A DNA stretch of 64,000 bases from Escherichia coli. GTDB taxonomy: Bacteria; Pseudomonadota; Gammaproteobacteria; Enterobacterales; Enterobacteriaceae. Location: NCBI RefSeq assembly GCF_003018255.1, contig NZ_CP027440.1. One strand, given 5' to 3'. Below the pieces are notes generated by a model. It was given only the letters and a program-made list of their open reading frames with translations, searched no databases and was not told the origin of the DNA. The position numbers were made by a program, and so were the translations under genes. This document shows, piece by piece, positions 1 to 26,841 of the stretch; the stretch's first letter is position 1, and the number at the start of each line of letters is the position of its first letter.

Positions 1-1512
1 CATTCGTTTCGCTCGCTGTGATTGTATTGACGGCACACTTTGCGAACATGTCGTACTGGCTGTGCAGGCCTTCGTCGAGGCCAAAACTCAGCAAGCGGAA
101 TTTACTCATTTAATCTGGCAGATGCGCAGCGAACACGTCACATCATCTGACGATCCGTTTGCCAGCGAAGAGGGCAACGCGTGTCGTCAATATGTTCAGC
201 AATTAAGTCAGGCATTATGGCTGGGCGGCATCAGCCAGCCGCCAATCCATTACGAGGCCGCTTTCAGCCGCGCACAGCAGGCGGCGGAACGCTGCAACTG
301 GCGATGGGTGAGTGAATCGCTACGGCAACTGCGCGCCAGCGTTGATGCCTTCCACGCCCGCGCCAGCCACTATCATGCCGGAAAATGCTTGTGCCAGCTT
401 GCGGCGTTAACCAGTCGCTTGAACAGTGCACAAGAGATAGCGCGACGTGACAGTGTCGGTGAAGTACCGCCCATGCCGTGGCGCACGGTCGTTGGCTCTG
501 GCATTGCCGGAGAAGCAAAGCTTGATCATCTGCGGCTGGTGTCTTTAGGTATGCGTTGCTGGCAGGATATTGAGCATTATGGTTTACCGATCCCGACACC
601 GGCAGTATTTTGCATCTTTCGCGTAGTTGGCCGAGAAGCGAACAGGAAAACTCACCGGCAGCGACGCGTCGGCTGTTTAGTTTTCAGGCTGGCGCACTGG
701 CGGGCGGGCAAATTGTTTCACAAGCAGCAAAACGCAGTGCCGATGGCGAGCTGCTGTTAGCTACCCGCAACCGCTTAAGCAGCGTTGTGCCGCTGTCGCC
801 TGATGCCTGGCAAATGTTGAGCGCGCCGTTACGCCAGCCGGGCATTGTGGCTTTGCGGGAATATTTACGCCAGCGTCCCCCCGCCTGCATACGGCCTCTT
901 AATCAGGTCGATAACTTATTTATTCTGCCGGTCGCTGAGTGTATTTCGCTCGGTTGGGATAGCAGCCGCCAGACGCTGGATGCGCAGGTAATCAGCGGCG
1001 AAGGTGAAGATAATCTGCTGACGTTATCACTGCCAGCCTCAGCCAGCGCGCCTTATGCCGTTGAACGCATGGCGGCGCTTTTGCAACAAACAGACGACCC
1101 CGTGTGTCTGGTTTCTGGCTTTGTCAGCTTTGTAGAGGGGCAATTGACACTGGAACCACAGGTAATGATGACAAAGACTCGTGCCTGGGCGCTGGACGCA
1201 GAAACTGCGCCTGTGGTGGCATCACTACCTTCTGCCAGCGTTCTGCCTGTGCCGTCTACTGCTCATCAGTTGCTGATGCGCTGCCAGGCGTTACTTATTC
1301 AACTGCTCCATAACGGCTGGCGCTATCAGGAACATAGTGCTATTGGTCAGGCAGAGTTGCTGGCGAATGACCTCACCGCGGTGGGTTTTTATCGGCTGGC
1401 ACATGTGTTGGGACAATTTCGTAATACAGAAAGCGAGGCACGGGTAGAAGCAATGAATAACGGTGTTTTGCTGTGCGAACAATTATTCCCCATGCTTCAG
1501 CAACAAGGATGA
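1..1512 (+). pseudogene. yehQ: SWIM zinc-finger protein YehQ, C-terminal ~500 codons, split across two overlapping same-strand reading frames (frame open from window start to 760; second frame open 574..1512)
   Basis: SWIM-like CxCx5CxH motif (CDCIDGTLCEH) translated from bases 17-49; two long overlapping ORFs in different frames imply a frameshift near 580-760; position upstream of yehR. Confidence 0.55.
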
Positions 1513-1636
1513 AATAGTGCTTTTTACTAAGAGTTCTACTCCAGTTCCGGACTGCTCACGCCACGGTATTAGGCATATCCTATATAGCCCCTGGTGAGAG
1601 TCACCAGTTCCTTGATTAAATAAAATGGAGTTTTAC

Positions 1637-2098
1637 ATGAAGGCTTTCAATAAGCTGTTTTCCCTCGTTGTTGCATCTGTTCTGGTTTTCTCTCTTGCTG
1701 GCTGCGGTGACAAAGAAGAATCGAAAAAATTCAGCGCCAATCTGAACGGTACTGAAATTGCCATTACCTATGTCTACAAAGGTGACAAGGTGCTTAAGCA
1801 ATCTTCTGAAACCAAAATTCAATTTGCCTCCATTGGTGCAACCACCAAAGAAGACGCTGCCAGGACACTTGAGCCGTTAAGCGCCAAATACAAAAACATC
1901 GCGGGTGTTGAAGAAAAATTAACCTATACCGATACCTACGCGCAGGAAAACGTGACTATCGATATGGAAAAAGTGGATTTTAAAGCCCTGCAGGGTATTT
2001 CAGGAATCAACGTTTCTGCTGAAGATGCCAAAAAAGGTATCACTATGGCGCAAATGGAACTGGTGATGAAAGCCGCTGGTTTTAAAGAAGTGAAATAA
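1637..2098 (+). CDS. yehR: lipoprotein YehR (DUF1307)
   Basis: 153-aa ORF with signal peptide and lipobox (LAGC); GGAG RBS 6 nt upstream of ATG 1637; track ORF 1625 start rejected. Confidence 0.9.
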   Translation: MKAFNKLFSLVVASVLVFSLAGCGDKEESKKFSANLNGTEIAITYVYKGDKVLKQSSETKIQFASIGATTKEDAARTLEPLSAKYKNIAGVEEKLTYTDTYAQENVTIDMEKVDFKALQGISGINVSAEDAKKGITMAQMELVMKAAGFKEVK

Positions 2099-2104
2099 TC
2101 TGTC

Positions 2105-2130
2105 GGCGGCCATGTTTTTGCATGGCCGCC
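2105..2130. terminator. bidirectional hairpin between convergent yehR and yehS
   Basis: GGCGGCCATG-tttttg-CATGGCCGCC, perfect 10-bp stem. Confidence 0.55.
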
Positions 2131-2139
2131 ATACCCGTC

Positions 2140-2610
2140 TTAGCTTTTCTTCACATGCTGGCGCGCTGCCAGTCCACGCAGAAAATAACGTAAAAATTGA
2201 TCGCCGCATTCGCGGAAGTTTTTATGATCCGGTGCACGCATCATCGCCGTAATTTCCGGCATCGAAACACGGAACTGCTGTTCGGTAAGGATCGCCAGAA
2301 TGTCATCGGTTTTCAGCGAAAACGTGATGCGTAATTTTTTCAGCACGATGTTGTTATTAATGCGACGTTCCGGCTCCATTGCCGGAGCAGACTCATCCTT
2401 GCCACGTTTTTCATAAATCAGGCCATTGAGGAAGGAAGACAAAACAATGTCCGGACAACGCTGAAAACCCTCTTCGTCTTCTTTACGTAGCCAGACGGCG
2501 ATCTGTTCCGCGGTGGCTTCGACATTACCCAGCGCCAGAATACGCACCAGGTCATTATTATTGGCTTTCAAAATGTAGCGCACGCTGCGCAGAATATCGT
2601 TACTTAGCAT
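2140..2610 (-). CDS. yehS: DUF1456 family protein YehS
   Basis: 156-aa ORF starting MLSNDILRSV with GAAGG RBS; conserved position next to btsR. Confidence 0.85.
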   Translation of the reverse strand: MLSNDILRSVRYILKANNNDLVRILALGNVEATAEQIAVWLRKEDEEGFQRCPDIVLSSFLNGLIYEKRGKDESAPAMEPERRINNNIVLKKLRITFSLKTDDILAILTEQQFRVSMPEITAMMRAPDHKNFRECGDQFLRYFLRGLAARQHVKKS

Positions 2611-2656
2611 GAGGCCTTCAGGTGTTGATGAGGCAAAAAGCCATTTTAGCAGTCTT

Positions 2657-3376
2657 TTACAGGCCAATCGCCTCTTTTAAGCTTTTCAGATAACGACGGC
2701 TGACCGGCACGGTTAAGCCATTACGCAAAATCAACTCGGCCTGGCCGTTATCTTCCAGACGAATCTCCTGTAAATGCGCGAGGTTAACCAGATACTGACG
2801 ATGGCAGCGTAGTAGTGGTGTACGACTCTCCAGGGTACGTAATGTCAGTTCGGTAAAGCCCTCTTTCCCTTCGTGACTGGTAACGTAGACACCGCTCATC
2901 CGACTGCTGACAAATGCCACATCTTTCATTTGCAGCAAATAAATCCGACTATGCCCCGTACAAGGGATAAATTTCAGCGCCTGTTGATTTTCCGGTAACA
3001 ACGAAACATCCTGCTTGCTGCGCTCCAGACGCAATCGCGCCAGCGTTTTCTCCAGTCGCGCTTCATCAATTGGCTTCAGCAGATAATCAAAGGCATGTTC
3101 TTCAAAGGCTTTAATGGCGTATTCATCAAACGCGGTGAGAAAAACAATATACGGACGATGTTCCGGGTCGAGCATCCCCACCATTTCCAGACCACTGATG
3201 CGCGGCATCTGGATATCGAGGAACAGCACATCCGGGCGCAGTTTATGCACCGCGCCGATCCCTTCCACGGCGTTTGAACACTCACCAACGATTTCAATAT
3301 CGCTCTGCTCCTGCAAAAATACGCGCAGGTTCTCCCGTGCTAACGGTTCATCATCGACAATTAAGACTTTAATCAT
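2657..3376 (-). CDS. btsR: LytTR-family response regulator BtsR (YehT)
   Basis: receiver domain ([16 protein letters not shown]) plus C-terminal LytTR domain; ATGA start/stop overlap with btsS. Confidence 0.92.
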
Positions 3377-5058
3377 GCCTCGTCCCTCCATGGTAGTCGT
3401 AACGTTATTCGGGTGTAACAATCAGGCTCACAGGCGACGCTTATCCCATAGTCATCGCCAAACCGTTCACGTAAACGCTTATCCACCAGATTCATCCCCA
3501 GCCCACTGGCATTGGTTACCGGTTGATACAAACCGGCATTGTCTTCGATCTCCAGCATCAAATGTTGCCCCTCACGTCGGGCGCTGATTGCCACTCGCCC
3601 TGTATCCAGCAGTTGTGATGTCCCATGTTTAATGGCGTTTTCCACTATCGGTTGCAGGGTAAACGCGGGCAATTGCTGCTGGGATAATTCTTGCGGAATA
3701 GCAATGTTGACCTGCAACCGCGACTGGAAGCGCGCCTTTTCAATTTGCAGATAAGCGTTCACATGTTCAATTTCGTCTGCGAGAGTAACAAACTCCGAAG
3801 GCCGCTTTAAGTTTTTGCGGAAAAAAGTGGAAAGATACTGGACCAGCTGGCTGGCCTGTTCGCTGTCGCGGCGGATCACCGCTTTAATGGTGTTAAGCGC
3901 ATTAAACAAAAAATGGGGGTTCACCTGGGCGTGAAGCAGTTTGATCTCTGACTGGGTGAGCATCGCTTTTTGCCGCTCATATTGCCCGGCGAGGATCTGC
4001 GCCGAAAGCAGTTGCGCAATCCCCTCGCCCAGCGTGCGGTTGATTGAACTGAATAAACGGTTTTTGGCTTCATACAATTTGATGGTGCCCATCACCCGCT
4101 GATTTTCGCCACGCAACGGAATGACCAGCGTCGACCCCAGTTTGCATTGCGGATGCAAAGAGCAACGATAAGGTACTTCGTTGCCATCAGCGTAGACCAC
4201 TTCACCGGTTTCAATCGCTTTTAAGGTGTAAGTCGAAGAAATCGGTTTGCCGGGTAAATGGTGGTCGTCACCAATTCCGGTAAAGGCCAGCAATTTCTCT
4301 CGATCGGTAATCGCGACTGCACCAATATCCAGCTCCTGATACAGCACCTGTGCCACTTTCATGCTGTTCACTTCGTTAAACCCCTGGCGCAAAATGCCTT
4401 CCGTCGAGGCAGCCACTTTTAGCGCAGTGGCAGAAAAAGCCGAAGTGTATTTTTCAAACATCGCGCGTTTATCGAGCAATATACGCATAAACAGCGCCGC
4501 GCCGACGGTATTGGTAACCATCATTGGCGCAGCAATATTACTCACCAGACGCACCGCATCTTCATAAGGTCGGGCGATCGCCAGGATGATCAACATTTGC
4601 ACCATTTCAGCGACGAACGTGACGGCACCGGCGGTAATGGGGTTAAAGACTTTATCAGTGCGCCCGCGACGGATCAGGATGCTGTGTACCAGGCCGCCGA
4701 GCAACCCTTCAACGATGGTCGAGATCATGCAACTTAGCGCGGTCATGCCCCCCATCGAATATCGATGTAACCCGCCGGTCAGACCAACCAGCCCACCGAC
4801 GACCGGACCGCCGAGTAAGCCGCCCATTACCGCGCCTATCGCACGGGTATTGGCAATAGAATCGTCAATGTGCAACCCAAACCAGGTGCCCATGATGCAG
4901 AAGATGGAAAAAACGATGTAGCAGAGAAATTTATGCGGCAGACGAACCGTGACCTGCATTAACGGTATGAATAATGGCGTTTTACTCATTAACCACGCAA
5001 TGACTAAAAAAACGCACATCTGCTGAAGCAGCAGCAACACCAGATTAAAATCGTACAT
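3373..5058 (-). CDS. btsS: LytS-type sensor histidine kinase BtsS (YehU)
   Basis: 561-aa ORF, N-terminal multi-TM 5TMR-LYT region, GAF and His-kinase domains; start ATG 5058 (MYDFNLV), track GTG 5073 rejected. Confidence 0.92.
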
Positions 5059-5279
5059 ACTCGCAAACCACACTTCCCTTTAAAACGCGTAACATACATT
5101 GCTTGCGTTTAACTTTCTTTGAACTCTTGCAGAAAAATGAGAATTCGTGAGTACGATCACTCAAAATCGCCTGGCAAAAATAAAATCACCCTATAGATGC
5201 ACAAAAAACGGGCAAAACTACCTGGTTCGCAAAACTGCGTCTAAAGTTAAACCGGGACCTCGCGAGCAAGGGTGAGACG

Positions 5280-6011
5280 ATGGCGCTTTACACAATTGGT
5301 GAAGTGGCGTTGCTTTGTGATATTAACCCTGTCACGTTACGCGCGTGGCAGAGGCGTTACGGATTGCTGAAACCGCAACGGACAGACGGCGGTCATCGGC
5401 TGTTCAATGATGCCGATATTGACCGGATCCGCGAGATCAAACGCTGGATCGACAACGGCGTGCAGGTCAGCAAAGTTAAAATGCTGCTCAGTAATGAAAA
5501 TGTTGATGTGCAGAACGGCTGGCGCGATCAGCAAGAAACATTACTAACTTACCTGCAAAGCGGCAATCTGCATAGCCTGCGAACGTGGATCAAAGAGCGC
5601 GGTCAGGATTACCCCGCCCAGACACTCACCACGCACCTGTTTATTCCTCTGCGCCGACGACTTCAGTGCCAACAACCGACTCTCCAGGCGCTGCTGGCGA
5701 TCCTCGACGGCGTACTGATCAACTACATCGCCATTTGTCTGGCTTCGGCACGTAAAAAACAGGGTAAAGATGCGCTGGTGGTTGGCTGGAATATTCACGA
5801 TACCACCCGTCTGTGGCTGGAGGGCTGGATTGCCAGTCAACAAGGATGGCGCATTGATGTCCTCGCCCACTCGCTCAATCAACTACGCCCTGAACTGTTC
5901 GAAGGCCGTACATTGCTGGTGTGGTGCGGTGAAAATCGAACCTCCGCCCAACAGCAGCAACTCACCAGTTGGCAGGAACAAGGCCATGATATTTTCCCAC
6001 TCGGCATTTAA
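5280..6011 (+). CDS. mlrA: MerR-family transcriptional regulator MlrA
   Basis: 243-aa ORF with N-terminal MerR HTH (YTIGEVALLCDINPVTLRAWQRRYGL). Confidence 0.92.
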   Translation: MALYTIGEVALLCDINPVTLRAWQRRYGLLKPQRTDGGHRLFNDADIDRIREIKRWIDNGVQVSKVKMLLSNENVDVQNGWRDQQETLLTYLQSGNLHSLRTWIKERGQDYPAQTLTTHLFIPLRRRLQCQQPTLQALLAILDGVLINYIAICLASARKKQGKDALVVGWNIHDTTRLWLEGWIASQQGWRIDVLAHSLNQLRPELFEGRTLLVWCGENRTSAQQQQLTSWQEQGHDIFPLGI

Positions 6012-6894: not shown

Positions 6895-7821
6895 TTACGC
6901 CTCCTCCAGCAGATCCTGAAAATGCAGCGTGCCGCAAGGCTCGCCCTGCGTGTTCACCACCGGCAGCACCTCGCATCCCCGCGCGACAAACAGAGAAAGC
7001 GCATCGCGTAGCGTCATCTCTTCTGCCAGCGCCTCACCTTCTGCCCGTTCTTCGCGACGCACGTAATCCGCCACGCTACGTAACGAAAGCAGGCGGACAC
7101 CCAGTTCACTATGCCCAAAAAACTGGCGGACAAAATCATTCGTCGGACGAGTCAGCATCGTCAGCGGATTGCCCTGCTGCACCACTTCACCGTGATCCAT
7201 CAACACCAGATGTTCTGCCAGTCGTAGCGCCTCATCAATATCATGAGTGACCAGCACAATGGTACGCCCCAGCAAACGGTGTATGCGCGTCATCTCTTGT
7301 TGCAACGCGCCGCGCGTTACCGGGTCCAGCGCGCCAAAAGGTTCATCCATCAGTAAGACTTGCGGATCGGCAGCCAGCGCGCGGGCCACTCCCACACGTT
7401 GCTGCTGACCACCGGAAAGCTGATGCGGATAACGCTCACGCAAATTTGGCTCCAGCCCCAGTAGCGCCATTAATTCGTCGATACGATCGTCGATCCGCGC
7501 CCGTGACCATTTTTGTAATTGCGGCACGGTGGCAATATTTTGCGCCACGCTCCAGTGGGGAAACAGGCCAATAGATTGAATGGCATAGCCCATCCGGCGG
7601 CGCAACTCCAGCACTGGCAGCGAGCGAATTTCTTCTCCGGCAAAGCGGATCACGCCACTGTCATGCTCCACCAGGCGGTTAATCATTTTCAGAGTGGTGG
7701 ATTTACCGGAACCCGACGTGCCAATCAGTACCGAAAAACTCCCTTCCTGAAAATTGAGATTGAGATCGTTAACGGCTTTTTGTGCGCCGAACAGTTTGCT
7801 GACATGGCTAAATTCAATCAT
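6895..7821 (-). CDS. yehX: ABC transporter ATP-binding protein YehX
   Basis: Walker [13 protein letters not shown] signature LSGGQQQR, Walker B LLLMDEP, C-terminal CBS-like region. Confidence 0.93.
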
Positions 7822-8971
7822 TACGTTTCACCTTCAGCAGTGCGATAAGCAAATCGAACAGCGCGTCGGTAAGCACCGCCAGAACAATTACCGGGATCAC
7901 CCCCAGCAACACTAAATCAATGGCACTGCTTAGCAGCCCCTGGAAAACCAGCGCACCAAAACCGCCTGCGCCGATTAACGCCGCAATCACCGCCATGCCA
8001 ACGGTTTGTACCATCACCACCCGCAGGCTGCGCAGAAATACCGGTAACGCCAGCGGTAACTGAACATGCAGGAAACGCTGCACCCCGCTCATCCCCATCG
8101 CTCTGGCGCTCTCCAGCACATCGCGCGGGATCTGGTTCAAGCCGACTACTACGCCGCGCACCAGCGGCAGCAAGGCATAGAGCACCAGCGCAATCAGTGC
8201 GGGTGTCATTCCGGTTCCTGCTATGCCGAGCGTTCCCAGCCACGGAAAGGCCGTAACCAGCGCGGCAAGCGGCGCAATCAGCAGGCCAAAGAGCGCTACC
8301 GAAGGCACGGTCTGAATGACATTCAGCAGAGAAAAAATCGCCCCCTGCCGCGCGGTGGAAAAGTAGCACCAGATGCCCAACGGCACACCAATCACTAACG
8401 CAGGCAGCACCGCACCAAACAGCAACGTCAGATGTTGTGCCAGCGCGTCGTCAAACACATCCTGACGGTTGGCGTATTCTTTCATTAACGAGAGATCGTT
8501 AAGCGTGCCGGAGTACAGCAACCACAGCGGAACAATGGCAATCTGCATATGCAACAACCAGCGCCACAGCGGATGCGTGGAGATTCGGCGGATGGCATCG
8601 CTACAGGCCAGCAGTGCCAGCGCCGCAGCCAGCCAGAAACCACTTCCGAGGCTGGTACGCGCCAGCGCACTGCCATTTTGCGCCAGTTGTGTCGCCGCCT
8701 TTCCAGCTCCCCACACCAGCAATACGAAGACGAATTGCGCCAGAATGAGTGCAAAAATGCTGCCTTTTTTAGCGGGAATAAAACAGGCTGTCAGCCAGGC
8801 GCAACCAACGCCCACCAGCATCCAGAGAGTTTGCGGCCACAGCTGCCAGAGATGACGCCCCTCACCCGAAACTAAACGATTAGGTGCGTAACTGATAAAC
8901 GGCAGCGCCGCTGCGATTGCCGTCAGCAACAGCAGCAGCGCCAGAACAGGATTAATACGGAAATAAGTCAC
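7814..8971 (-). CDS. yehY: ABC transporter permease YehY
   Basis: 385-aa polytopic membrane protein; GTG start; 8-bp overlap with yehX. Confidence 0.9.
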
Positions 8972-8977
8972 GGGAAA

Positions 8978-9895
8978 TTACTTCGTCCACCCTTTTTGTT
9001 TCAGGTAGTCGGCTGCCACTTTTTTGGCATCCAGTCCTTCCACTGCAATGCTGGCATTCAGCTGCTGCAATGTTTTTTCATCGAGGCTGGCGAAGACTGG
9101 CTGTAGCCACTGTGCTATTTGCGGATACTCTTTCAGCACCGACTCACGCACCACTGGCGCAGGCGCGTAGATAGGTTGCACGCCTTGCGGATCGCTTAAA
9201 GTTTGCAGCCCCAGCGCCGCGACCGGGCCGTCAGTGCCGTAAGCCATCGCCGCATTAACGCCAGAGGTTTGCTGGGCAGCGGCTTTGATCGTCACCGCCG
9301 TGTCACCACCGGCCAGTGACAGCAACTGATCCTGACTGAGCTTAAAGCCATAGGCTTTTTCAAACGCGGGTAAGGCATCGGCGCGTTCGATAAACTCTGC
9401 CGAGGCTGCCAGTTTAAAGGTGCCGCCCTCTTTCAGATAACGACTCAGGTCGGCAAGCGAAGTGAGTTTGTTTTTCTCTGCCACATCCTGACGCACGGCG
9501 ATGGTCCAGGTGTTATTTGCAGGCGCGGGCGTCAGCCAGATTAACTTGTTTTGCTCTGCATCGAGTTTTTTGACTTTCTCATAGCCTTGCTGCGCGTTTT
9601 TCCATGCCGTATCGTTTTCATCTTTAAAGAAAAACGCGCCATTGCCAGTATATTCCGGATAGATATCCAGCTCGCCAGAAGTGATCGCCCCGCGCACTAC
9701 GGGAGTCGTTCCCAGCTGCACTTTATTTACCGTAGGAACGCCGTGACTTTCCAGCACCTGCAAAATGATATTGCCGAGCAGCGCGCCTTCCGTATCGATT
9801 TTTGAACCAACCTTAACGGGGGAAGCCGCCTGTAGCGGCAGGCTCACGGCTGCCAACAAAACCAGTGAACCTGCCCAGACCTTTGAGAGTGGCAT
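8978..9895 (-). CDS. osmF: periplasmic glycine-betaine-type substrate-binding protein OsmF (YehZ)
   Basis: 305-aa ORF with signal peptide (LVLLAAVSLPLQA); operon context. Confidence 0.9.
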   Translation of the reverse strand: MPLSKVWAGSLVLLAAVSLPLQAASPVKVGSKIDTEGALLGNIILQVLESHGVPTVNKVQLGTTPVVRGAITSGELDIYPEYTGNGAFFFKDENDTAWKNAQQGYEKVKKLDAEQNKLIWLTPAPANNTWTIAVRQDVAEKNKLTSLADLSRYLKEGGTFKLAASAEFIERADALPAFEKAYGFKLSQDQLLSLAGGDTAVTIKAAAQQTSGVNAAMAYGTDGPVAALGLQTLSDPQGVQPIYAPAPVVRESVLKEYPQIAQWLQPVFASLDEKTLQQLNASIAVEGLDAKKVAADYLKQKGWTK

Positions 9896-15264: not shown

Positions 15265-15437
15265 GATGAGCATTCAGATAGTGGTTCACGCGCACGGGTT
15301 GCGCACCGCCGGAGTAAGGATTTACTGAGGCTAGCGACGCCATCATAACGAGCAAAAAGTGCGATCGTCAAAGAAGAATCGTGAGGAAATGCTGCATTGC
15401 TGACATTTACGCCAGCAATGCAGCGCAAAAGAACTTT

Positions 15438-16891: not shown

Positions 16892-17653
16892 CTATTCTGG
16901 GTTGAACTGCGGATTCGCCAACATAAAGCCGCCATCCACTATCAACGACTGCCCGGTGGTGTAATTTGCGCCCTCCGAACAAAGCCATACCACCAGGCTG
17001 GCAATCTCATGCGTTGTGCCAAAACGTCGCAAGGGAATCGAAGGCTCCGCGTCGGGCCTCACATCGCTATCATCCATGCCGTTCATTGGCGTGGCGATCG
17101 CCCCAGGTGCGACTGCGTTCACCAAAATTTTATGCCTGACCAACTCCAGCGCCATTGCTTTGGTTAACCCGCCGAGCGCATGTTTAGCTGCTGTGTAAGC
17201 GCTGGCATCCGGCAGCGGCGTATGTTCATGCACCGACGTAATGTTGATGATGCGACCGCCCTGCCCTTGTTTCACCATCTGACGAGCCGCAATTTGCGAG
17301 CATAAGAATGCACCGTCGACATCAACGGTAAAAATCTTGCGCCACTCATCAAAAGCCATATCAAGAAACGGCGCTTTGGTCATTGCACCCGCATTATTCA
17401 CCAGCACATCGATGCGCCCCAGTCGTTGAATGAGTTTCTCCAGCGCCTGCGCACCTTCTGACAGTTTACCGAGATCCAGCTGCACGATCTCCGCACGTGC
17501 GCCGTGGCTAACCACCTCACGCGCAGTATCTTTTGCCCCTTCTTCATCAGAGTGCCAGGTAATGCCAATATCAAACCCCTGCTGCGCCAGTAATAACGCG
17601 CACTCTTTGCCGATCCCCGAATCGGAGGCGGTAATTATCGCGACCTGTGCCAT
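16892..17653 (-). CDS. yohF: short-chain dehydrogenase/reductase YohF
   Basis: 253-aa ORF, Rossmann motif TASDSGIG, SDR catalytic YxxxK region. Confidence 0.9.
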   Translation of the reverse strand: MAQVAIITASDSGIGKECALLLAQQGFDIGITWHSDEEGAKDTAREVVSHGARAEIVQLDLGKLSEGAQALEKLIQRLGRIDVLVNNAGAMTKAPFLDMAFDEWRKIFTVDVDGAFLCSQIAARQMVKQGQGGRIINITSVHEHTPLPDASAYTAAKHALGGLTKAMALELVRHKILVNAVAPGAIATPMNGMDDSDVRPDAEPSIPLRRFGTTHEIASLVVWLCSEGANYTTGQSLIVDGGFMLANPQFNPE

Positions 17654-17705
17654 CGAGTTCTCCACTTAACGCTGAATAAATGTTAAGTATAGAAGGCGCA
17701 TATCA

Positions 17706-19142
17706 TCAGCGTTTGTAACCTCCGCCCAGCGCACCGGTGAGTTGAATGGAGGCATCCAGCCACTGCCCTTGCAATAACAGGCCATTGGCCCGCTCACGCA
17801 GCGCGGGGATTCTGGCTTCGCTGACGCGGGAACCAGCAATGATGCCCGCGTTAAAGCGCGCCTGCGCAAGACCTACCACACGCAAGGCATCGTGCTCAAT
17901 TTGCGCCTGATGCTGGTTTTTCTCCGCCAGTGTCTGAACCTGGCTGGCCGCCCGCGCCACGTCATTTACCGCTTCAACCACCGCTTTGTTGTAGCTGGCG
18001 ATAGACAAGTTGCTTTCGGCTTTTGCGATATCGAGATTGGCGTTAAGACGACCACTATCGAAAATGGGTAGCGTCAGGCCTGCCGTAACGCCCATTTGCT
18101 GCGCGGAATGACGGAACAGATCGCTTAAGTGCAACGCATCCTGTTGCAGAAAGGCCATCAGGTTGATGTCAGGATAAAATGCCGCTTTTGCCGCATCAAT
18201 AGTGCTTAACGATGACTCAACGTACCAGTGCGCCGCCTGCAAATCTGCCCGCCGGGCCAGTAAGGAGTACCCGAGTTCATCAGGAAGCTGACTTGCCACT
18301 TTCGGCAACGCGACCGGTTTAAGCTTCAATGACTTTGTCTGGTGGTTGGTGAGCGCACTTAACCGTGCCTCAATAATTTTCATTTTCCCCGCGACATCGT
18401 TGAGCTGCTGCCGGGTTTTGCTGGCATTAATATCGGTTTCCACACCTTCAACTGAAGAAGTAATCCCGTTCTGATATAGCTGGCGATCGGTCGCGATAAT
18501 GGTGTTCTGCTCTTTTTCGATTTGCTGCAAGACCGTGTTTAACGCCGCCTGGGTTTGCCACTCCCAGTACAGGCGGGCTACGCTGCCAGCCAGCAATTGG
18601 CAGGTTTGCTCGCGTTCCGCCGCCCGTGCTTTAACCGTACCGAGGCGAGCAGTAACCTCCGCCCGATTCTTTCCCCAGATATCGAGATGCCAGCCCGCCG
18701 TTAAGCCAAAAGTACCGTTGGTGTACCACGGACCGGTCGTACCTGCGGCAGGATCGTTCAGAGCAAACGGCCCCATTAACCCTTCTGCAGACATTTTTTG
18801 CCGCTCCATATCCGCAGAAAAGTCGATCTGCGGACCATCCTGAGTGGCAACTGCCTTCGCCTGGGCTTCAGCCAGCTGAATGCGCTGTTCAGCCACCTGC
18901 ATATCCGGTGCGTTCTGTAGTGCGTTATTAATTAAGGAAGTGAGTTGATTATCGTGATACTCCAGCCACCATTGGCTGTCTGGCCAACCATTTTTCAGCG
19001 CCGTGGGTAATACGGTGTCAACTTGTGCAGCGGGCGTTTGCTGGCTTAACGCCTGGCGGGTTTCATGCATAGGTGCACACCCGGCCAGCATCAGTAACAG
19101 CGGAAAACAGGCGATGGCGGGATAAAAGGAATCACGATTCAT
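17706..19142 (-). CDS. mdtQ: outer-membrane efflux lipoprotein MdtQ (OprM/TolC family), reading frame apparently intact
   Basis: uninterrupted 478-codon ORF from ATG 19142 (MNRDSFYPAIACFPLLLMLAGC lipobox); track ORF extends to TTG 19232. Confidence 0.8.
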   Translation of the reverse strand: MNRDSFYPAIACFPLLLMLAGCAPMHETRQALSQQTPAAQVDTVLPTALKNGWPDSQWWLEYHDNQLTSLINNALQNAPDMQVAEQRIQLAEAQAKAVATQDGPQIDFSADMERQKMSAEGLMGPFALNDPAAGTTGPWYTNGTFGLTAGWHLDIWGKNRAEVTARLGTVKARAAEREQTCQLLAGSVARLYWEWQTQAALNTVLQQIEKEQNTIIATDRQLYQNGITSSVEGVETDINASKTRQQLNDVAGKMKIIEARLSALTNHQTKSLKLKPVALPKVASQLPDELGYSLLARRADLQAAHWYVESSLSTIDAAKAAFYPDINLMAFLQQDALHLSDLFRHSAQQMGVTAGLTLPIFDSGRLNANLDIAKAESNLSIASYNKAVVEAVNDVARAASQVQTLAEKNQHQAQIEHDALRVVGLAQARFNAGIIAGSRVSEARIPALRERANGLLLQGQWLDASIQLTGALGGGYKR

Positions 19143-19365
19143 GGGGGAATAATCAGGTAAGAAAAGGTGCGCGGAGATTACCGTGTGTTGCGATATATTT
19201 TTTAGTTTCGCGTGGCAATACATCAGTAGCAATAAAACGACATATCCAGAAAAATATACACTAAGTGAATGATATCTTCCTATTTATCTTAATCGTTTAT
19301 GGATAGCGGCAAAGGGCTTCGTTTTTTCCTATACTTATTCAGCACTCACAAATAAAGGAACGCCA

Positions 19366-19449: not shown

Positions 19450-19544
19450 AATTAATTAATGTCATCAGATCCGAAAATAACGAGAATATTTCAGTCTCTC
19501 ATCCTGTTGCGCTCCTGTCATGTGCATTGCTTCATATAATCACT

Positions 19545-19760
19545 GGCGCAAGGAGCGCGCAGGGGGCGGCCAATCGCCGCCGCCCCCTGCACCCCCGGGC
19601 TCTGGCGAACAAAATCGCCGCTGCGCGGTGCCCTCGGCTTATCCCTTACGGCTACCGGGTCGGGCGCGAGGTAACATCCCTGTAAAACGCGCCCTCAGCC
19701 CACATCCATGTGGGCTGCCCCGGCCTTCAGGGAACGCCTCGGCGATTTTGACGCCACCAA
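19545..19760. repeat. GC-rich intergenic element made of several perfect hairpins (possible boxC/BIME-like repeat or structured RNA)
   Basis: perfect 10-bp stem AGGGGGCGGC/GCCGCCCCCT (about 19561-19588), perfect 10-bp stem CAGCCCACAT/ATGTGGGCTG (about 19696-19717), plus GGCGA..TCGCC and GGCG..CGCC mini-hairpins; lies between yohP and dusC. Confidence 0.4.
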
Positions 19761-19821
19761 ACAACCGTGCGGCCTATTGATAAAGAGCTAACACATTGTC
19801 AAAAAACATCACTATGGTTTC

Positions 19822-20830: not shown

Positions 20831-22024
20831 TCAGCGTGGTTGCAAACAGTTATCTTCTTTCCAGCCGTACAGCCACTCCATGCCGCGGTAAAACTCTGCC
20901 TGCGATTTCCCTTTCCACAACAGGTTACGTACCTGGCGCTCTACTCCTGCGGCATGATAAACCCGCCCCATTTCACGGGTCGACCAGACGATGCGCGCGG
21001 TGCGCGGAATACGTACCGACTCATACAGCGCAAAGGCTTGTGCCGCATCACCCTCACACTGCGCCAGCGCCTTACCCAGTGTTACCGCGTCTTCCAGCGC
21101 CATACAGGCACCCTGCGCCATATACTGCGCCACCGGATGGGCCGCATCGCCCACCAGCGTAATGCGCTTCGTTCCCCACTTCGCTACCGGTTCACGGTCG
21201 GCGGTTGACCAGCGTCGCCAGGAGGTCGGTTTATCCAGCATCTGGCGCGGACGGGGGTGAATCCCTTCAAAGTAAGAGAGCACTTCCTCTTTACTGCCAT
21301 CCTTCACGCCCCACTCTTCCTGCTGGCGGCTGTGGAATGTCACCACCAGGTTATACTGCTTGCCGCCACGTAAAGGGTAATGCACCAAGTGACAGCACGG
21401 CCCCGCCCACAGTACTGGTGCGTTAATGCGCAAATCTTCCGGCATATCGGCACAATCGATAACCGCACGGTAGACCACATGCCCGGTGACACGCGGCGCA
21501 TCGCCCAATAAGCTCTGGCGCACCACTGACTTCACGCCGTCACAGCCAATCAGAATATCGCCGATCCAACTATTGCCGCGATCGTCGAAAACGGTGACAT
21601 CGTCTTCTGTCTCGCGAATATCCACGACGTTGGTGGAGGTGTGATATTCCACGTCCGGATGCGTCAGTACCGCTTCCCACACCGAGGCATGAATATCAAC
21701 CCGGTGGATCACCGCGTAAGGGCCGCCGAAATGATCGCGAAAGGCCTGACCGGTTTCAATGCGCACCACTTCTTCGGCGTTTACCGCATCCATCATGGTG
21801 ATGTGATCGGTGAATACCGCGCGCTGGCGGGCGATTTCACCGACGCCGAGGCTATCCAACGCCGAAAACGCATTTGGCCCCAACTGGATACCTGCGCCAA
21901 TCTCACCGATCTCATGCGCCTTTTCCAGCAGCACCACTTTGATCCCCTGGCGGGCCAGTGACAACGCAGTTGCCGCACCGCCGATCCCGCCTCCCACAAT
22001 TACTGCGCGTGTCACTTTAGTCAT
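20831..22024 (-). CDS. FAD-dependent aromatic monooxygenase, 3-hydroxybenzoate 6-hydroxylase-like (MhbM-like)
   Basis: 397-aa ORF, N-terminal GxGxxG FAD fold ([17 protein letters not shown]), DG motif (CDGVKSVVR) and GD motif ([15 protein letters not shown]); AGGAG RBS. Confidence 0.88.
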
Positions 22025-22038
22025 TATGGTTCTCCTGG

Positions 22039-22683
22039 TCAGGCTGAAATTTTATCTTGTTGATTTTCTGGCGCTGCGGCAATGAACGCTGGCAGCTGCG
22101 TGCAGGCGTCGTACACCGCTTTGCAGCGCGGATACCCGCTCAGATCGCAGTTCATACGTAGCGCGTTCGCCCACTGTGGAACAAGGCAGCAATCTGCCAG
22201 CGTCGGCGTCTCGCCCACACAAAATTGCCCCGACTGGCTCTGGCGCAGTAGCTGTTCCACCGCGCTTAACCCTTGCTGGATCCAGTGCGCATACCAGCGT
22301 TTTTTATCTTCTTCACTGACGTTCAGCTCTTCGGTCAGGTAGCGCAGCACGCGTAGGTTATTCAATGGATGAATATCGCAGGCGATGGCATAGACAATTT
22401 CCAGCACCTTGTTGCGGGCCGGTTCTTCCTGCGGCATCAGCGGAACTTGCGGGTAGTGACTCTCCAGCCAGTCAATAATCGCCAGCGATTGTCCGAGTGA
22501 TTCGCCCTCGTCGGTCAGCAGCGTCGGCACCAGCCCGACCGGATTCATCCGCCGGTAGGCCAGTTCGTTTTGCTGACCAATGCGGATATTCACCCCTTCG
22601 GTCTGGTAATCGATACCCTTCAGCGCCAGCGCAATGCGCACCCGGTAAGACGCTGAACTATTAAAAAAACTGTACAGCTTCAT
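22039..22683 (-). CDS. glutathione-dependent maleylpyruvate isomerase (zeta-class GST, MhbI-like)
   Basis: 214-aa ORF from ATG 22683 (MKLYSFFNSSASYRVRIALALKG) with GAGG RBS; zeta-GST N-terminal motif; track TTG 22698 rejected. Confidence 0.85.
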   Translation of the reverse strand: MKLYSFFNSSASYRVRIALALKGIDYQTEGVNIRIGQQNELAYRRMNPVGLVPTLLTDEGESLGQSLAIIDWLESHYPQVPLMPQEEPARNKVLEIVYAIACDIHPLNNLRVLRYLTEELNVSEEDKKRWYAHWIQQGLSAVEQLLRQSQSGQFCVGETPTLADCCLVPQWANALRMNCDLSGYPRCKAVYDACTQLPAFIAAAPENQQDKISA

Positions 22684-22690
22684 CATCACC

Positions 22691-23392
22691 TCAGACAATC
22701 TTCACCGCGATAGGCGTTAAGCCCTCGACGTTGCCCGTGATCACATCACCTTTGACTACTGAGCCAACCCCTTCCGGCGTACCGGTAAAGATTAGATCGC
22801 CCGGTTGCAGTTCAAAGAAGCCTGACAGGTAGCTGATGGTTTCATTCACTGACCAGATGAGATGACGAATATCGCTGCGCTGATGATCTTCGCCGTTAAC
22901 CTGTAACCAGATAGGTGCGTTATCAATACCGCCAGTTTCGCTGGCTTTGTGCAGCGGCGCGATGGGGGCCGAGAGATCGAACGCTTTGCCGATTTCCCAC
23001 GGGCGGCCCATCTGGCGCATTTCCATTTGACGGTCACGGCGAGTCATATCAAGACCCGTGGCATAACCCCAGACATATTCATGGGCGTTTTCCAGCGGGA
23101 TATCACTGCCTTTTTTACCAATCGCCACCACCAGTTCAATTTCATAATGGTAGTTATCGGTCTGCGCCGGATACGGCAGCGCCAGCGTTTCGCCAGCGGC
23201 AACCGGAACAATGGCATCCGCCGGTTTGCAGAAGAAGAATGGCGGTTCACGATCCGGATCAAAGCCCATTTCGCGGGCGTGGGCGGCATAGTTACGTCCG
23301 ACGCAGTAAACGCGGCGTACGGGGAATTGTTCATCACTGCCAACAACCGGTACGGTAACGGGCGCTTGTGGTTCGAATACGTATTGAGTCAT
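22691..23392 (-). CDS. fumarylpyruvate hydrolase (FAH family, MhbH-like)
   Basis: 233-aa ORF with fumarylacetoacetate-hydrolase family features; GGGAGAG RBS; operon position. Confidence 0.85.
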
Positions 23393-23407
23393 TTTCTCTC
23401 TCCCAAA

Positions 23408-24436
23408 TTAATAACGTGCTTCGCGGAACAGCCCCAGGGCTTCTTGTACCGGTCTGTCCGAAAAACTAAATAAAACGGTATCTTGCGTGGTCTGGAACGA
23501 CACGCCGTGCCAGGTCGGCACCACGAAGATATCTTTTGCACTAAAGCTGAAGGTTTCATTGCCGATAGTGACCTGCCCGCTACCTTCCACCACATGGTAG
23601 ATGGTGCTGTCAGTGGTACGCGCCACGCGTGAGGCAAACCCTTTCGGCAGCAGTTGCAGAAAAGCGCCCATCGACGGCATCGGATAGCCACCGGTGACCG
23701 GGTTGACGTAGCGCATTTTGTAGCCATCCCACTCATCGGCATCGCCCAGGCGGGTTAAATCGTGTAGCACTTCGCGGCTACGGTCATAACGGTAGTTAAA
23801 GATGGGCGAGGAGTTCCCGGTCTGATGGCGCAACGGCAACATATTGGCAGCGTAACGCGGCAGGTAATCGCCCTCTTTACGCGTTACTGGTTGTTGCTCC
23901 TCCGGGTAATCTTCGGCAAAACCGCAGCCCAGAGTGTTCACTAATGGCAGATCCAGCCCATCGAGCCAGATAACCGGTTCGTCGCCAGGGTTACCGTGAT
24001 CGTGCCAGCGCCACTGCGGGGTCAGGATAAAATCGCCCTCATTCATTGACGTGCGTTCGCCATCAACGGCGGTGAATGCCCCTTTACCTTCAACAATAAA
24101 ACGCAGCGCCGACTGGTTATGGCGATGACTCGGTGCCACTTCGCCCGGCATGATCAGTTGCAAACCGGCATATAAAGTCGCGGTGATGGAAGACTGCCCG
24201 CGCAGCGCCGGGTTTTCCAGCACCAGCACGCGGCGCACGGCTTCTTTCGCGCCAATCAGGCTGCCGCTCTCCAGCAGCAACGGGCGGATCTCCTGATAAT
24301 TCCAGTACGCTGGCGCACAGTTAGCGTTGGGCGTTTTTGGCACCAGATGGTGCAGTGACTCCCACAGCGGGGTCAGGTTTTGCCCGGAAATATGCTGATA
24401 AAATTGCTCGCGGCTATTTTGATTGTTATCAGTCAT
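23408..24436 (-). CDS. gentisate 1,2-dioxygenase (bicupin, MhbD-like)
   Basis: 342-aa ORF, two cupin halves with His-rich metal sites; AGGAG RBS. Confidence 0.88.
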
Positions 24437-24447
24437 TGGGATGCTCC

Positions 24448-25806
24448 TTATTCGTTCACAACACCTGCGTGAGGCAGTGAGTCAGGGACAGAGGTCGACT
24501 GGCGAACCACGGTGATCAGCTGGGTTAACATCACCGCACTGATCGCCGCGGGCACAGCGATAATGAAAAACAGGGTGTCGAAAGAGAAATTCATCGCCAT
24601 CATAACGCCGCCAGACAGCGAGCCAACAATCGCGCCGCAGCGGCCCACGGCGTTTGACCAGCTCACGCCCGTGGCGCGACTTTGTGTTGGATAAAGTGTT
24701 GCGGTCAGCGCATTCAGCCCCACCTGCGATCCGCTGATGCCAATGCCGGTGCCGAAAATCGCCAGCGCCATTAGCCATAATCCGTCCTGGCTTAAGCCAA
24801 TCATCACGATGCATACAGCGCCTATGGCATAGCTCAGCGCCAGTACGCGGAAAGGATTGAACTTATCCATAAGCACGCCCAGCGCCAGCGCGCCCAACGT
24901 ACCGCCAATCTGGAACGCGGCGGTAACCCAGGAGGCATGTTGCAGGTCGATGCCGCGATGGTTGAGCTGCGTTGGCATCCAGCTTGAGAGCAGGTAAATA
25001 ATCAGCAAGCTCATAAAGAACACCACCCACAGCATCAACGTGATGGGTAACTGACGCCCCATAAACAGTTGACGAATGCTGCCTTTTGTAACGGAGGCTG
25101 ATTCAATGAGATAAAAGTGGGTATCGACATAACGCTCGCGGATGATGGCGCTGACGGTTTTCGCAATCACCGCCTGGGGTAGCTGGCGGCGCACCTGCCA
25201 GCGTGGCGATTCCGGCAGAACCACCAGCAGTGCAACAAACAGCATCAGCGGTAATACGCCACCCAACACCAGGATCCCGTGCCAGCCAATCACCGGCACC
25301 AGCTGCGCGCTGACAATCCCGCCAAACGCCGAACCCAGGGTAAAGCCGCAAAACATCAGCGTCACCAGCGCGCCGCGGCGGCGGGCAGGCAGATATTCCG
25401 AGGTCATGGTAATTGTATTTGGCATCGCGCCACCCAGCCCAAGGCCGGTGAGGAAACGCAGGAATACCAGCGTTTGCAGATCCGGTGAGAAAGCCGAGGC
25501 GAGGCTTAACGCGCCAAACAAAAAGACGCACAGCTCAATCACCCGTTTGCGGCCAAAGCGATCGGACAACGGACCACAAAGCAGTGCGCCTGCGGTTAAC
25601 CCCAGCAGACCCGCGCCAAAAAGCGGGGCGAGATCGCCTGCGGTGAGTTGCCAGTGAGTGCGAATATCAGGGGCGATAAAGCCGATAGCCGCGGTGTCAA
25701 AACCATCGAGCATTACCACCAGAAAACAGCAGATGATAACGCGCCACTGCATCTTGCCGACCGGAGCAGCATCGATCAGTGCTTGTAAATCACGTCGTTG
25801 AGTCAT
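24448..25806 (-). CDS. MFS aromatic acid:H+ symporter (3-hydroxybenzoate transporter-like, MhbT-like)
   Basis: 452-aa ORF, 12 predicted TM segments, MFS signature ([11 protein letters not shown]). Confidence 0.88.
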
Positions 25807-25884
25807 AGTAAATGCCTCAGTGCAGGTAAGGTAGATGTTTCATTTGTTTTATGTATGTTGCGATATTGTGATTAAAGAGATGAA

Positions 25885-26841
25885 ATGTACAATGGCATTT
25901 CGGACAGAGAGATAACCTGGAGGTTATGGCAAATGGCAAACTGGGCGCAGAAACTAAAGCTTCATCACCTGCAAATGCTGGTGGCGCTGGGTGAACAGGG
26001 CAATCTGACCCATGTCGCGCGGATGATGAATATCACCCAGCCTGCGCTGTCGAAATGGTTGTCACAACTCGAAGATGAGATCGGCCTCACACTCTTTGAG
26101 CGGCACAGCAAAGGACTTCGTCCTACTGAAGGCGGCAAATTGTTATTGCAACATGCCCAACGGTTAATCAATGACATGGAGCGCTCGCAACATGAACTGG
26201 CCCGTTTTAAACAAGGTGGACTGGTCGGCAGTCTGAAAATTGGCTGTTCTCCCGTCGCCACTGACTGCGTATCCCAGGCGATTTTGCATTTGCTCAAGGA
26301 GATGCCAACTCTACACCTGAATATCGAAGAGAAGGTGATGACCCCATTGCTGCAAGATCTGTTGGCAGGTTCTGTCGATGTGGTGGTTGGGCGAATTGGC
26401 GGTCGCGCGTTGCAGCTGCCGCTGAATTATCGCGTGCTCTACACCGAGCCGGTGTGTTTTGTCGCCCGTCCTGAGCATCCACTGGCGAAATACGCCACCC
26501 TCAGCTGGAATGATCTTGCTAACTGGCGGTGGATAGTCTGGCCGACAGGTACCCCCATCCGCATCAGCATTGATAATGCGCTGGTAGACCACGGCGTGAT
26601 GCTGCCAGAAAACACGATTGAGTCGGCGTCGATGAACGTCAGTACCAACCTGTTACAAAGCAGCGATATGATCTCTATTTTGTCATTACGCCTGGCGCAA
26701 CGTTATGCCAGCCAGGGACAACTGGTGATTCTCAACCTGCCAAAGATAGAACAGAAAGGCAGCGTCGGTGTGTTCTGGCGCAATAACGAAACGCCTTCTT
26801 ATGCTTTAAGTCAGTTTCTGCACTTTTTACAGCAGAATTAG
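25885..26841 (+). CDS. LysR-type transcriptional regulator, divergent from the catabolic operon (MhbR-like); alternative start ATG 25933
   Basis: N-terminal HTH (LHHLQMLVALGEQGNLTHVARMMNITQPALSKWLSQLE) and LysR substrate-binding domain; GGAGG RBS precedes the 25933 ATG. Confidence 0.85.
   Translation: MYNGISDREITWRLWQMANWAQKLKLHHLQMLVALGEQGNLTHVARMMNITQPALSKWLSQLEDEIGLTLFERHSKGLRPTEGGKLLLQHAQRLINDMERSQHELARFKQGGLVGSLKIGCSPVATDCVSQAILHLLKEMPTLHLNIEEKVMTPLLQDLLAGSVDVVVGRIGGRALQLPLNYRVLYTEPVCFVARPEHPLAKYATLSWNDLANWRWIVWPTGTPIRISIDNALVDHGVMLPENTIESASMNVSTNLLQSSDMISILSLRLAQRYASQGQLVILNLPKIEQKGSVGVFWRNNETPSYALSQFLHFLQQN

Follow-up and report, generated by a model that had tools for sequence, protein, structure and literature searches.

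Introduction

Four OMF genes are found in Escherichia coli (tolC, cusC, mdtP and mdtQ), among which TolC serves as the general OMF for AcrAB, EmrAB, MacAB and others. Further systems bear on the position of mdtQ within this set. Bucl8, a Burkholderia OMF encoded with the FUSC-type pump FusC, has VceC at the head of its table of solved homologues (PMC7682875), and the AaeAB pump of E. coli has been listed with its OMF left blank, as 'AaeAB-?' (PMC8277102). The mdtQ locus of K-12 is called 'the mdtQ pseudogene' in a 2025 paper on yohP (PMC12719787). A 2025 review of TolC already records intact mdtQ as the norm of the species, gives the function of the gene as 'not elucidated', and presents its promoter as one without experimental confirmation. 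The sole phenotypes in the literature, cited in that review, are small MIC shifts upon deletion of yohG, the synonym of mdtQ.

Here we describe the mdtQ locus carried by a 64-kb stretch of E. coli DNA, the whole of which (64,000 nucleotides) is referred to below as the window. We consider it very probable that this locus represents the wild-type, intact gene for an OMF, that the pseudogene of the reference genome is a lesion of K-12, and that the gene is an orphan whose likeliest partner is a pump of the FUSC or MFS type. The intactness of mdtQ is a correct but ordinary observation, already known from RefSeq annotation and from the 2025 TolC review.

The mdtQ reading frame

The reading frame, and its mechanical extension, are located as follows:

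17706..19142, minus strand: mdtQ (yohG) coding sequence, intact, 478 codons plus a TGA stop
19143..19232, minus strand: in-frame TTG extension upstream of mdtQ, part of the mechanical ORF only and probably noncoding

We confirmed the uninterrupted ORF of 478 codons reported in a preliminary description of this DNA: it lies on the minus strand, opens with an ATG at 19142 (MNRDSFYPAIACFPLLLMLAGC...), contains one stop only, at its end, and measures 1437 nt, a length divisible by 3. The span originally assigned to the gene, 17706-19232, stands for the coding sequence proper (17706-19142) but not for 19143-19232, which belongs to the TTG-initiated form given by the mechanical ORF listing (17706..19232, minus strand, 508 aa). 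The RefSeq start of mdtQ in JNE112863, the closest complete genome (which matches best, at 99.8% identity, across 10-34 kb), is the same ATG at 19142, and the MdtQ family profile is fully covered from the first residue that this ATG encodes; hence we regard the upstream extension as probably noncoding.

Family membership, lipoprotein signal and predicted fold

The product matches the NCBIfam MdtQ equivalog model, NF008524, at 1022.1 bits against a curated cut-off of 650 bits, with residues 1-478 aligned to profile positions 1-478 of 478. It also scores 272.3 bits (cut-off 210) against TIGR01845, the NodT OMF subfamily (TC 1.B.17), and is matched in two stretches by Pfam PF02321 (OEP), all of which bears out the initial assignment to the OprM/TolC family of outer-membrane efflux proteins. 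The thresholds of the MdtP family NF007390 (355.2 bits versus 597) and of the TolC family TIGR01844 (53.9 bits versus 225) were both missed. The N-terminus displays the following elements:

19077..19142, minus strand: predicted signal peptide and lipobox (residues 1-22, with M-L-A-G-C), recognized by regular expression and hydrophobic core
19077-19079, minus strand: Cys22, the candidate acylated residue, within CFPLLLMLAG-C22, with Ala at +2

The lipoprotein signal LLLMLAGC that had been recognized by inspection is corroborated by a match of residues 12-22 to the lipobox pattern [^DERK]6-[LIVMFWSTAG]2-[LIVMFYSTAGCQ]-[AGS]-C, ending at Cys22, a residue invariant among the aligned homologues (60/60). 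The hydrophobic core of the signal peptide has a mean KD of 1.89.

An AlphaFold2 monomer model of MdtQ computed from the family alignment (pLDDT 85.1, pTM 0.79) contains four beta-strands (residues 105-116, 139-153, 325-336 and 348-357) together with long helical hairpins. When this model was compared with the PDB by Foldseek, every match with E<=1e-3 (44/44) was an OMF, in the order VceC (1yc9), CusC, OprN, SilC, OprJ, OprM, CmeC and MtrE, then TolC; a sequence search of the PDB placed VceC at 1.5e-38 and ranked the structures as Foldseek did. The predicted fold of MdtQ is that of an OMF protomer of the VceC/CusC/OprM type. By analogy with its family, MdtQ would be made as a prolipoprotein of 478 aa, lipidated on Cys22 and, with Ala at +2, sorted to the outer membrane, where it is expected to assemble as a homotrimer, with a beta-barrel of 12 strands and a long alpha-helical tunnel in the periplasm. 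Such a tunnel would dock a periplasmic adaptor and an inner-membrane exporter, allowing substrates to cross the outer membrane.

The K-12 lesion and the distribution of alleles

In the K-12 reference genome (NC_000913.3), mdtQ (b2139, 2227323-2228758) is annotated as a pseudogene of 1436 nt, compared with 1437 nt in the window. Global alignment of the two sequences (97.6% identity) revealed 34 substitutions and one 1-bp deletion, the latter in K-12 and confined to a homopolymer:

18991..18995, minus strand: A5 homopolymer (T5 on the plus strand), coding nt 148-152, codons 50-51; A4 in K-12

Loss of one A, reducing A5 to A4, accounts for both the frameshift in K-12 and the resulting stub, since the frame-0 product stops after 69 residues. 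The remainder of the K-12 gene stays readable in the +2 frame, where the first start is codon 79, and has no signal peptide. The window does not carry the K-12-type A4 allele: it has A5 and a sole terminal stop. The preliminary description had given K-12 mdtQ as an interrupted pseudogene, correctly so, as RefSeq flags b2139 in this way and the gene carries a 1-bp deletion; the pairwise alignment it had proposed has now placed that lesion at the A-run, and the K-12 gene is neither identical to that of the window nor intact.

The mdtQ locus was found in 5,423 of 5,426 complete E. coli genomes, with at least 80% query coverage in 5,407. Alleles of the A-run were distinguished with exact probes, a 38-mer for A4 and a 39-mer for A5, designed such that every 28-nt megablast seed must span the run. 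The exact A5 39-mer occurred in 4,934 of the 5,426 genomes and the exact A4 38-mer in 355; neither k-mer was present in about 134 locus-bearing genomes, probably on account of SNPs close to the run or of other lesions. K-12 derivatives (MG1655, BW25113, DH5alpha, DH1, C600, JM109, MC4100, W3110-type and others) made up 59 of 60 A4 records sampled evenly. Intact mdtQ is the norm in E. coli, and the A4 allele essentially marks K-12 laboratory strains. The earlier treatment of intactness as a feature of this strain is right in that it points away from K-12, but its framing is inverted, the intact gene being the rule of the species (4,934/5,426).

The sole record among the 60 that was not of K-12 was EcN_Sk, an assembly labelled as Nissle. 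Across 2,079 bp, its yohP-mdtQ-yohF segment matches K-12 at 100% identity and lies 42 nt from another Nissle derivative; the complete identity argues that EcN_Sk carries K-12-type DNA and does not represent an independent slip.

Rare natural losses also occur. In CFSAN061769 an IS5-family element stands in place of mdtQ and yohP, and independent truncations of mdtQ are documented for the Typhi and Paratyphi A serovars of Salmonella (PMC9241588).

Conservation and recombination at the locus

Comparison of the window allele with eight other E. coli alleles gave dN/dS values of 0.04-0.10 at dS values of 0.02-0.12, and at 65 of the 68 columns conserved in at least 80% of the family the window protein has the consensus residue. 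MdtQ occupies the same locus in Escherichia, Salmonella and Citrobacter, with 80-82% amino-acid identity. On this comparative evidence mdtQ is intact here and under purifying selection. The claim that a functional copy is retained stands in these two respects only, and they make the copy a putatively functional one.

Several residues were considered as possible lesions and dismissed. The three residues at odds with the family consensus (L222, N266 and Q333) occur in all MdtQ orthologues, those of E. albertii, Salmonella and Citrobacter among them, and are features of the clade. V44 (seen only in the window allele among the 9 compared), C181 (shared by the window and 2016C-3878 only) and H417 were rejected as damaging since the columns of all three are variable; H417, moreover, is ancestral, being found also in E. 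albertii, Salmonella and Citrobacter.

The relationships of the window allele differ from those of its surroundings, as a map of differences from JNE112863 delimits a distinct segment:

17461..19281, strand not applicable: recombination patch comprising the yohF 5' end, mdtQ and the mdtQ upstream region

Within this patch there are 51 differences from JNE112863 in 1.8 kb, compared with only about a dozen outside it, from ~9 to ~43 kb. Of the alleles in a distance matrix, that of 2016C-3878 is nearest to the window's, at 9 nt; all others are 32-45 nt away, with JNE112863 at 44 nt. Among themselves, the E. coli alleles other than that of the window differ by 17-45 nt, with the exception of EcN_Sk, whose mdtQ is that of K-12. 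The mdtQ allele of the window is recombinant relative to JNE112863, and the locus is polymorphic and mosaic.

Genomic neighbourhood

The gene order yohF-mdtQ-yohP-dusC is the same in K-12, EDL933, JNE112863 and Salmonella, and all of the genes transferred from JNE112863 (57/57) are intact in the window. Three neighbouring features are relevant to the interpretation of mdtQ:

16892..17653, minus strand: yohF (SDR oxidoreductase), co-oriented with mdtQ and 52 nt 3' of its stop
19143..19365, no strand: AT-rich intergenic region separating the divergent genes mdtQ and yohP; the promoter of mdtQ is to be sought here or further upstream
20831-26841 (~6 kb): mhb 3-hydroxybenzoate/gentisate cluster, between dusC and yohJ; absent from K-12

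A consensus scan detected no terminator-like site between mdtQ and yohF, and the two genes are possibly co-transcribed. Their linkage is kept in Salmonella; in Citrobacter yohF is missing from that position, which argues that it is no obligatory partner of mdtQ. The same scan found no convincing sigma-70 promoter in the mdtQ-yohP intergenic region, its sole promoter-like site on the minus strand falling at 19465-19438, within yohP; as the promoter and terminator scan yielded no more sites than shuffled sequence did, its output was not used as evidence. No purine run resembling a Shine-Dalgarno sequence was seen before the mdtQ ATG (…ctgattattcccccATG), and Rfam and tRNA scans of the whole 64-kb window returned nothing relevant to mdtQ.

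The mhb cluster lies ~1.7 kb from mdtQ and occupies an identical relative position in Salmonella and Citrobacter. This implies that the cluster is ancestral and was lost by K-12. Its presence, together with the 34 further substitutions in mdtQ, supports the original view that the window does not derive from K-12 MG1655.

Candidate partner pumps

A search for partner RND or MFP genes, suggested along with the initial description, yielded none within the 64-kb window. More broadly, the annotation transferred from JNE112863 includes no MFP, RND, FUSC, ABC or tripartite MFS gene in the window, setB being a single-component sugar exporter. Nor were pump or adaptor genes found beside the mdtQ orthologues of Salmonella and Citrobacter, where mdtQ is an orphan too. 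Its adaptor and transporter may have their genes at another locus, as those of TolC do.

Inferences about partnership must draw on more distant relatives. The orthologue group of MdtQ is narrow: among 1.84 billion cluster representatives, one was found at 60% identity, and the next at <=42%. Genomic contexts were compared for six informative non-orthologous relatives, 36-42% identical to MdtQ. In five of the six (P0125, P0127, P0128, P0129 and P0130) a FUSC gene of AaeB/MdtO type directly precedes the OMF gene, and three long contigs among these FUSC-linked relatives display the series YtcA, AaeA-type adaptor, FUSC, OMF. The sixth, P0132, adjoins an MFS gene and an EmrA-type MFP. Because its nearest relatives reside in FUSC/OMF operons or operons of the MFS/EmrA type, the partner of MdtQ is most likely a FUSC- or MFS-type pump, reached through an adaptor of EmrA or AaeA type, rather than an RND pump. 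In E. coli, we hypothesize that AaeAB or MdtNO may fill this role.

A bolder extension of this argument, which we put forward as quite unlikely, is that AaeAB, the 'relief valve' for aromatic carboxylic acids, has its missing outer-membrane partner in MdtQ, and that this role of MdtQ has been masked in K-12 work by the frameshift. If so, AaeAB-MdtQ would constitute a complete trans-envelope exporter in wild E. coli, Salmonella and Citrobacter, possibly tied in function to the neighbouring and ancestrally linked 3-hydroxybenzoate/gentisate cluster. AaeAB reportedly gives tolerance to pHBA in K-12, in work of Van Dyk from 2004. As mdtQ is broken in K-12, MdtQ would not be strictly required for that tolerance.

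Alternative readings of the locus

The most prosaic explanation of the difference between the window and K-12 is an error of homopolymer length in either sequence. A 1-bp change in a homopolymer is a classic site of sequencing error, and the Nissle-labelled assembly EcN_Sk also reads A4. We nevertheless reject this explanation, to which we assign a negligible probability, as effectively refuted by the division of independent assemblies into 355 with A4 and 4,934 with A5. It is further opposed by the RefSeq curation of b2139 as a pseudogene, by the nature of the EcN_Sk segment, which is K-12-type DNA and not random error, and by the 34 other sites at which the window and K-12 mdtQ differ. A more substantive alternative accepts that the gene is intact yet holds it to be cryptic: an orphan OMF whose translation starts weakly and which has no partner of its own, adding little or no efflux under normal conditions and simply undecayed. 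The gene is dispensable, given that K-12 survives without full-length MdtQ, and a cryptic state would accord with the failure to find an SD-like sequence or a clear promoter, with the orphan position of mdtQ in the window, Salmonella and Citrobacter, with its repeated independent losses (the K-12 frameshift, the IS5-associated deletion and the truncations in Typhi and Paratyphi A), and with a function still given as 'not elucidated' in the 2025 review. On the other hand, dN/dS values of 0.04-0.10, at dS of about 0.09-0.12, show purifying selection over the long term, the locus is covered to at least 80% in 5,407 of 5,426 genomes, and it has been kept since the ancestor of Escherichia, Salmonella and Citrobacter, which a useless gene would not be. 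We judge crypticity distinctly improbable in the face of this record.

A third possibility concerns the substrate rather than the state of the gene. MdtQ might mainly export, with AaeAB, an aromatic acid metabolite of endogenous or dietary origin and not drugs, in which case the mhb neighbourhood would be meaningful. The nearest relatives of MdtQ are indeed found in operons of the FUSC/AaeB type, the OMF slot of AaeAB is blank in the published listing (PMC8277102), and mhb, ~1.7 kb away, has kept its position in Salmonella and Citrobacter. However, the unrelated genes dusC and yohP separate mdtQ from mhb, in orientations that do not suggest co-transcription, and mhb is missing from K-12 and from many E. 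coli that keep the mdtQ locus: only 497 of the 5,426 genomes reach 80% coverage or more of a 24-kb query containing mhb. In addition, AaeAB is said to be active in K-12, and hence without MdtQ, and no paper linking mdtQ with aaeA or aaeB was found in the literature searched. We consider this aromatic-acid role unlikely. The reading of the locus that we prefer remains that of a wild-type, intact orphan OMF gene, disrupted in the K-12 reference by the loss of a single A.

Implications and comparison with known systems

With respect to mdtQ, K-12 is the odd one out among E. coli, and possession of the intact allele says of a strain only that it is 'not K-12'. A practical corollary is that studies of MdtQ, or of AaeAB-type pumps, are not meaningful in K-12 unless the frameshift in the A-run is repaired. 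Published phenotypes of 'mdtQ/yohG deletion' in K-12 likewise need to be read with the frameshift in mind: if K-12 was the strain used, the phenotypes of yohG deletion cannot reflect loss of full-length MdtQ.

The closest counterparts of the gene described here are the MdtQ proteins of 2016C-3878 (WP_001078122.1) and O157:H7 (UniProt Q8X659), which share its length of 478 aa and the order yohF-mdtQ-yohP-dusC; the window protein differs by one amino acid from that of 2016C-3878 and by 4-11 from those of other E. coli alleles. The K-12 gene b2139 is orthologous in position, with the same yohF and yohP flanks, but is frameshifted at A4 and is not accompanied by the mhb cluster beyond dusC. TolC (1EK9) resembles MdtQ in overall OMF architecture, with a Foldseek TM of about 0.67-0.75 at 13% identity, yet is not a lipoprotein and has no N-terminal Cys anchor. 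The best match among solved structures is VceC of Vibrio cholerae (1YC9; Foldseek E 7.9e-23, TM 0.75/0.86, 25% identity), the OMF of the MFS-type system VceCAB; the VceAB pump is encoded alongside VceC, whereas mdtQ is an orphan. Among named paralogous families the closest is MdtP (YjcP, NF007390), the best-scoring family other than its own (355 bits) and likewise a lipoprotein OMF of the NodT type. MdtQ differs from MdtP in scoring below the cut-off of that family and in being encoded apart from any adjacent adaptor or pump. The ytcA-mdtNOP arrangement in which MdtP is found (YtcA, AaeA-type MFP, FUSC, OMF) is nevertheless the very architecture seen in the operons of MdtQ's nearest relatives.

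Recombination and allelic variation at mdtQ

The window diverges from JNE112863, its closest complete genome, in discrete patches, one of which coincides with mdtQ. The features discussed here, in window positions, are as follows.

15269-15349, minus strand: Peptidase-S11 RNA motif in the pbpG 5' leader (Rfam RF03039, 72.8 bits)
17461-19281: 1.8-kb recombination patch spanning mdtQ, its upstream region and the 5' end of yohF
About 18477-18479, 18345-18347 and 18144-18146: MdtQ residues 222, 266 and 333, respectively
About 19505-19779: GC-rich structured repeat between yohP and dusC
20831-26841: 3-hydroxybenzoate/gentisate catabolic cluster between dusC and yohJ
49133-50383 and 52320-53570: nupX and psuT, paralogous NupC-family nucleoside transporter genes

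Within the 1.8-kb patch 51 differences from JNE112863 were counted; outside it, the two sequences differ at roughly a dozen positions over about 9 to 43 kb, and the allele nearest to mdtQ of the window is that of strain 2016C-3878 (9 nt apart), rather than that of JNE112863. Other regions of divergence are found near 2-7 kb, 43-48 kb, 55 kb and 62-64 kb.

In EcN_Sk, an assembly labelled E. coli Nissle (NZ_CP172017.1, positions 1160-3238), the yohP-mdtQ-yohF segment shows 100% identity to K-12 across 2,079 bp and shares its mdtQ frameshift; from the Nissle derivative SYNB1934 it differs at 42 nt. The repeat adjoining this segment is inverted relative to its K-12 orientation. Together these features suggest either a K-12/Nissle hybrid segment or a mis-assembly. 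In the natural isolate CFSAN061769 (NZ_CP042969.1, positions 4055-5650), both mdtQ and yohP are absent, and the yohF-dusC interval is occupied by an IS5-like element of the ISKpn26 family; mdtQ loss in this isolate is independent of, and outside, K-12.

L222, N266 and Q333 are common to the entire clade of MdtQ orthologues (E. coli, E. albertii, Salmonella and Citrobacter); R, G and G occupy these positions in more than 85% of related outer-membrane factors, most of them encoded in FUSC operons. This change may be linked to the orphan status of MdtQ, which has no adaptor or pump gene nearby. In the modelled protein, residue 222 ends the first long helix, beside the predicted periplasmic tip turn (residues 225-229), a region that would be expected to serve as an adaptor contact or gating site.

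Neighboring genes and structural elements

Elsewhere in the window, yehY and osmF (7814-8971 and 8978-9895), encoding a glycine betaine ABC transporter, are both intact. The annotation of JNE112863, a genome almost the same in sequence otherwise, lists both as pseudogenes (internal stop; frameshift). The Peptidase-S11 motif was the sole Rfam match to exceed gathering score across the 64-kb window, which yielded no tRNA genes. Cross-hits in the window-versus-genome comparison arise because nupX and psuT are paralogous, with about 79% DNA identity.

The catabolic cluster comprises genes for 3-hydroxybenzoate 6-monooxygenase, maiA, an FAH-family hydrolase, gtdA, mhbT and a LysR regulator. It is missing from K-12 and present at the equivalent site in Salmonella and Citrobacter; the cluster is therefore ancestral, and K-12 has lost it. 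Only 497 of 5,426 E. coli genomes covered at least 80% of a 24-kb query that includes it.

The yohP-dusC repeat contains inverted repeats at 19559-19590 and 19610-19750, and is 99.5% identical to the corresponding K-12 intergenic region, in which the TRIP1c element has been placed (PMC10888264). Chromosomal rearrangements between TRIP1a and TRIP1c have been reported (PMC10888264). In 2016C-3878, yohP is followed not by dusC but by IS110 and IS3 transposase genes and then by lysO (ybjE), an arrangement that may represent a rearrangement of the TRIP1a/TRIP1c type.
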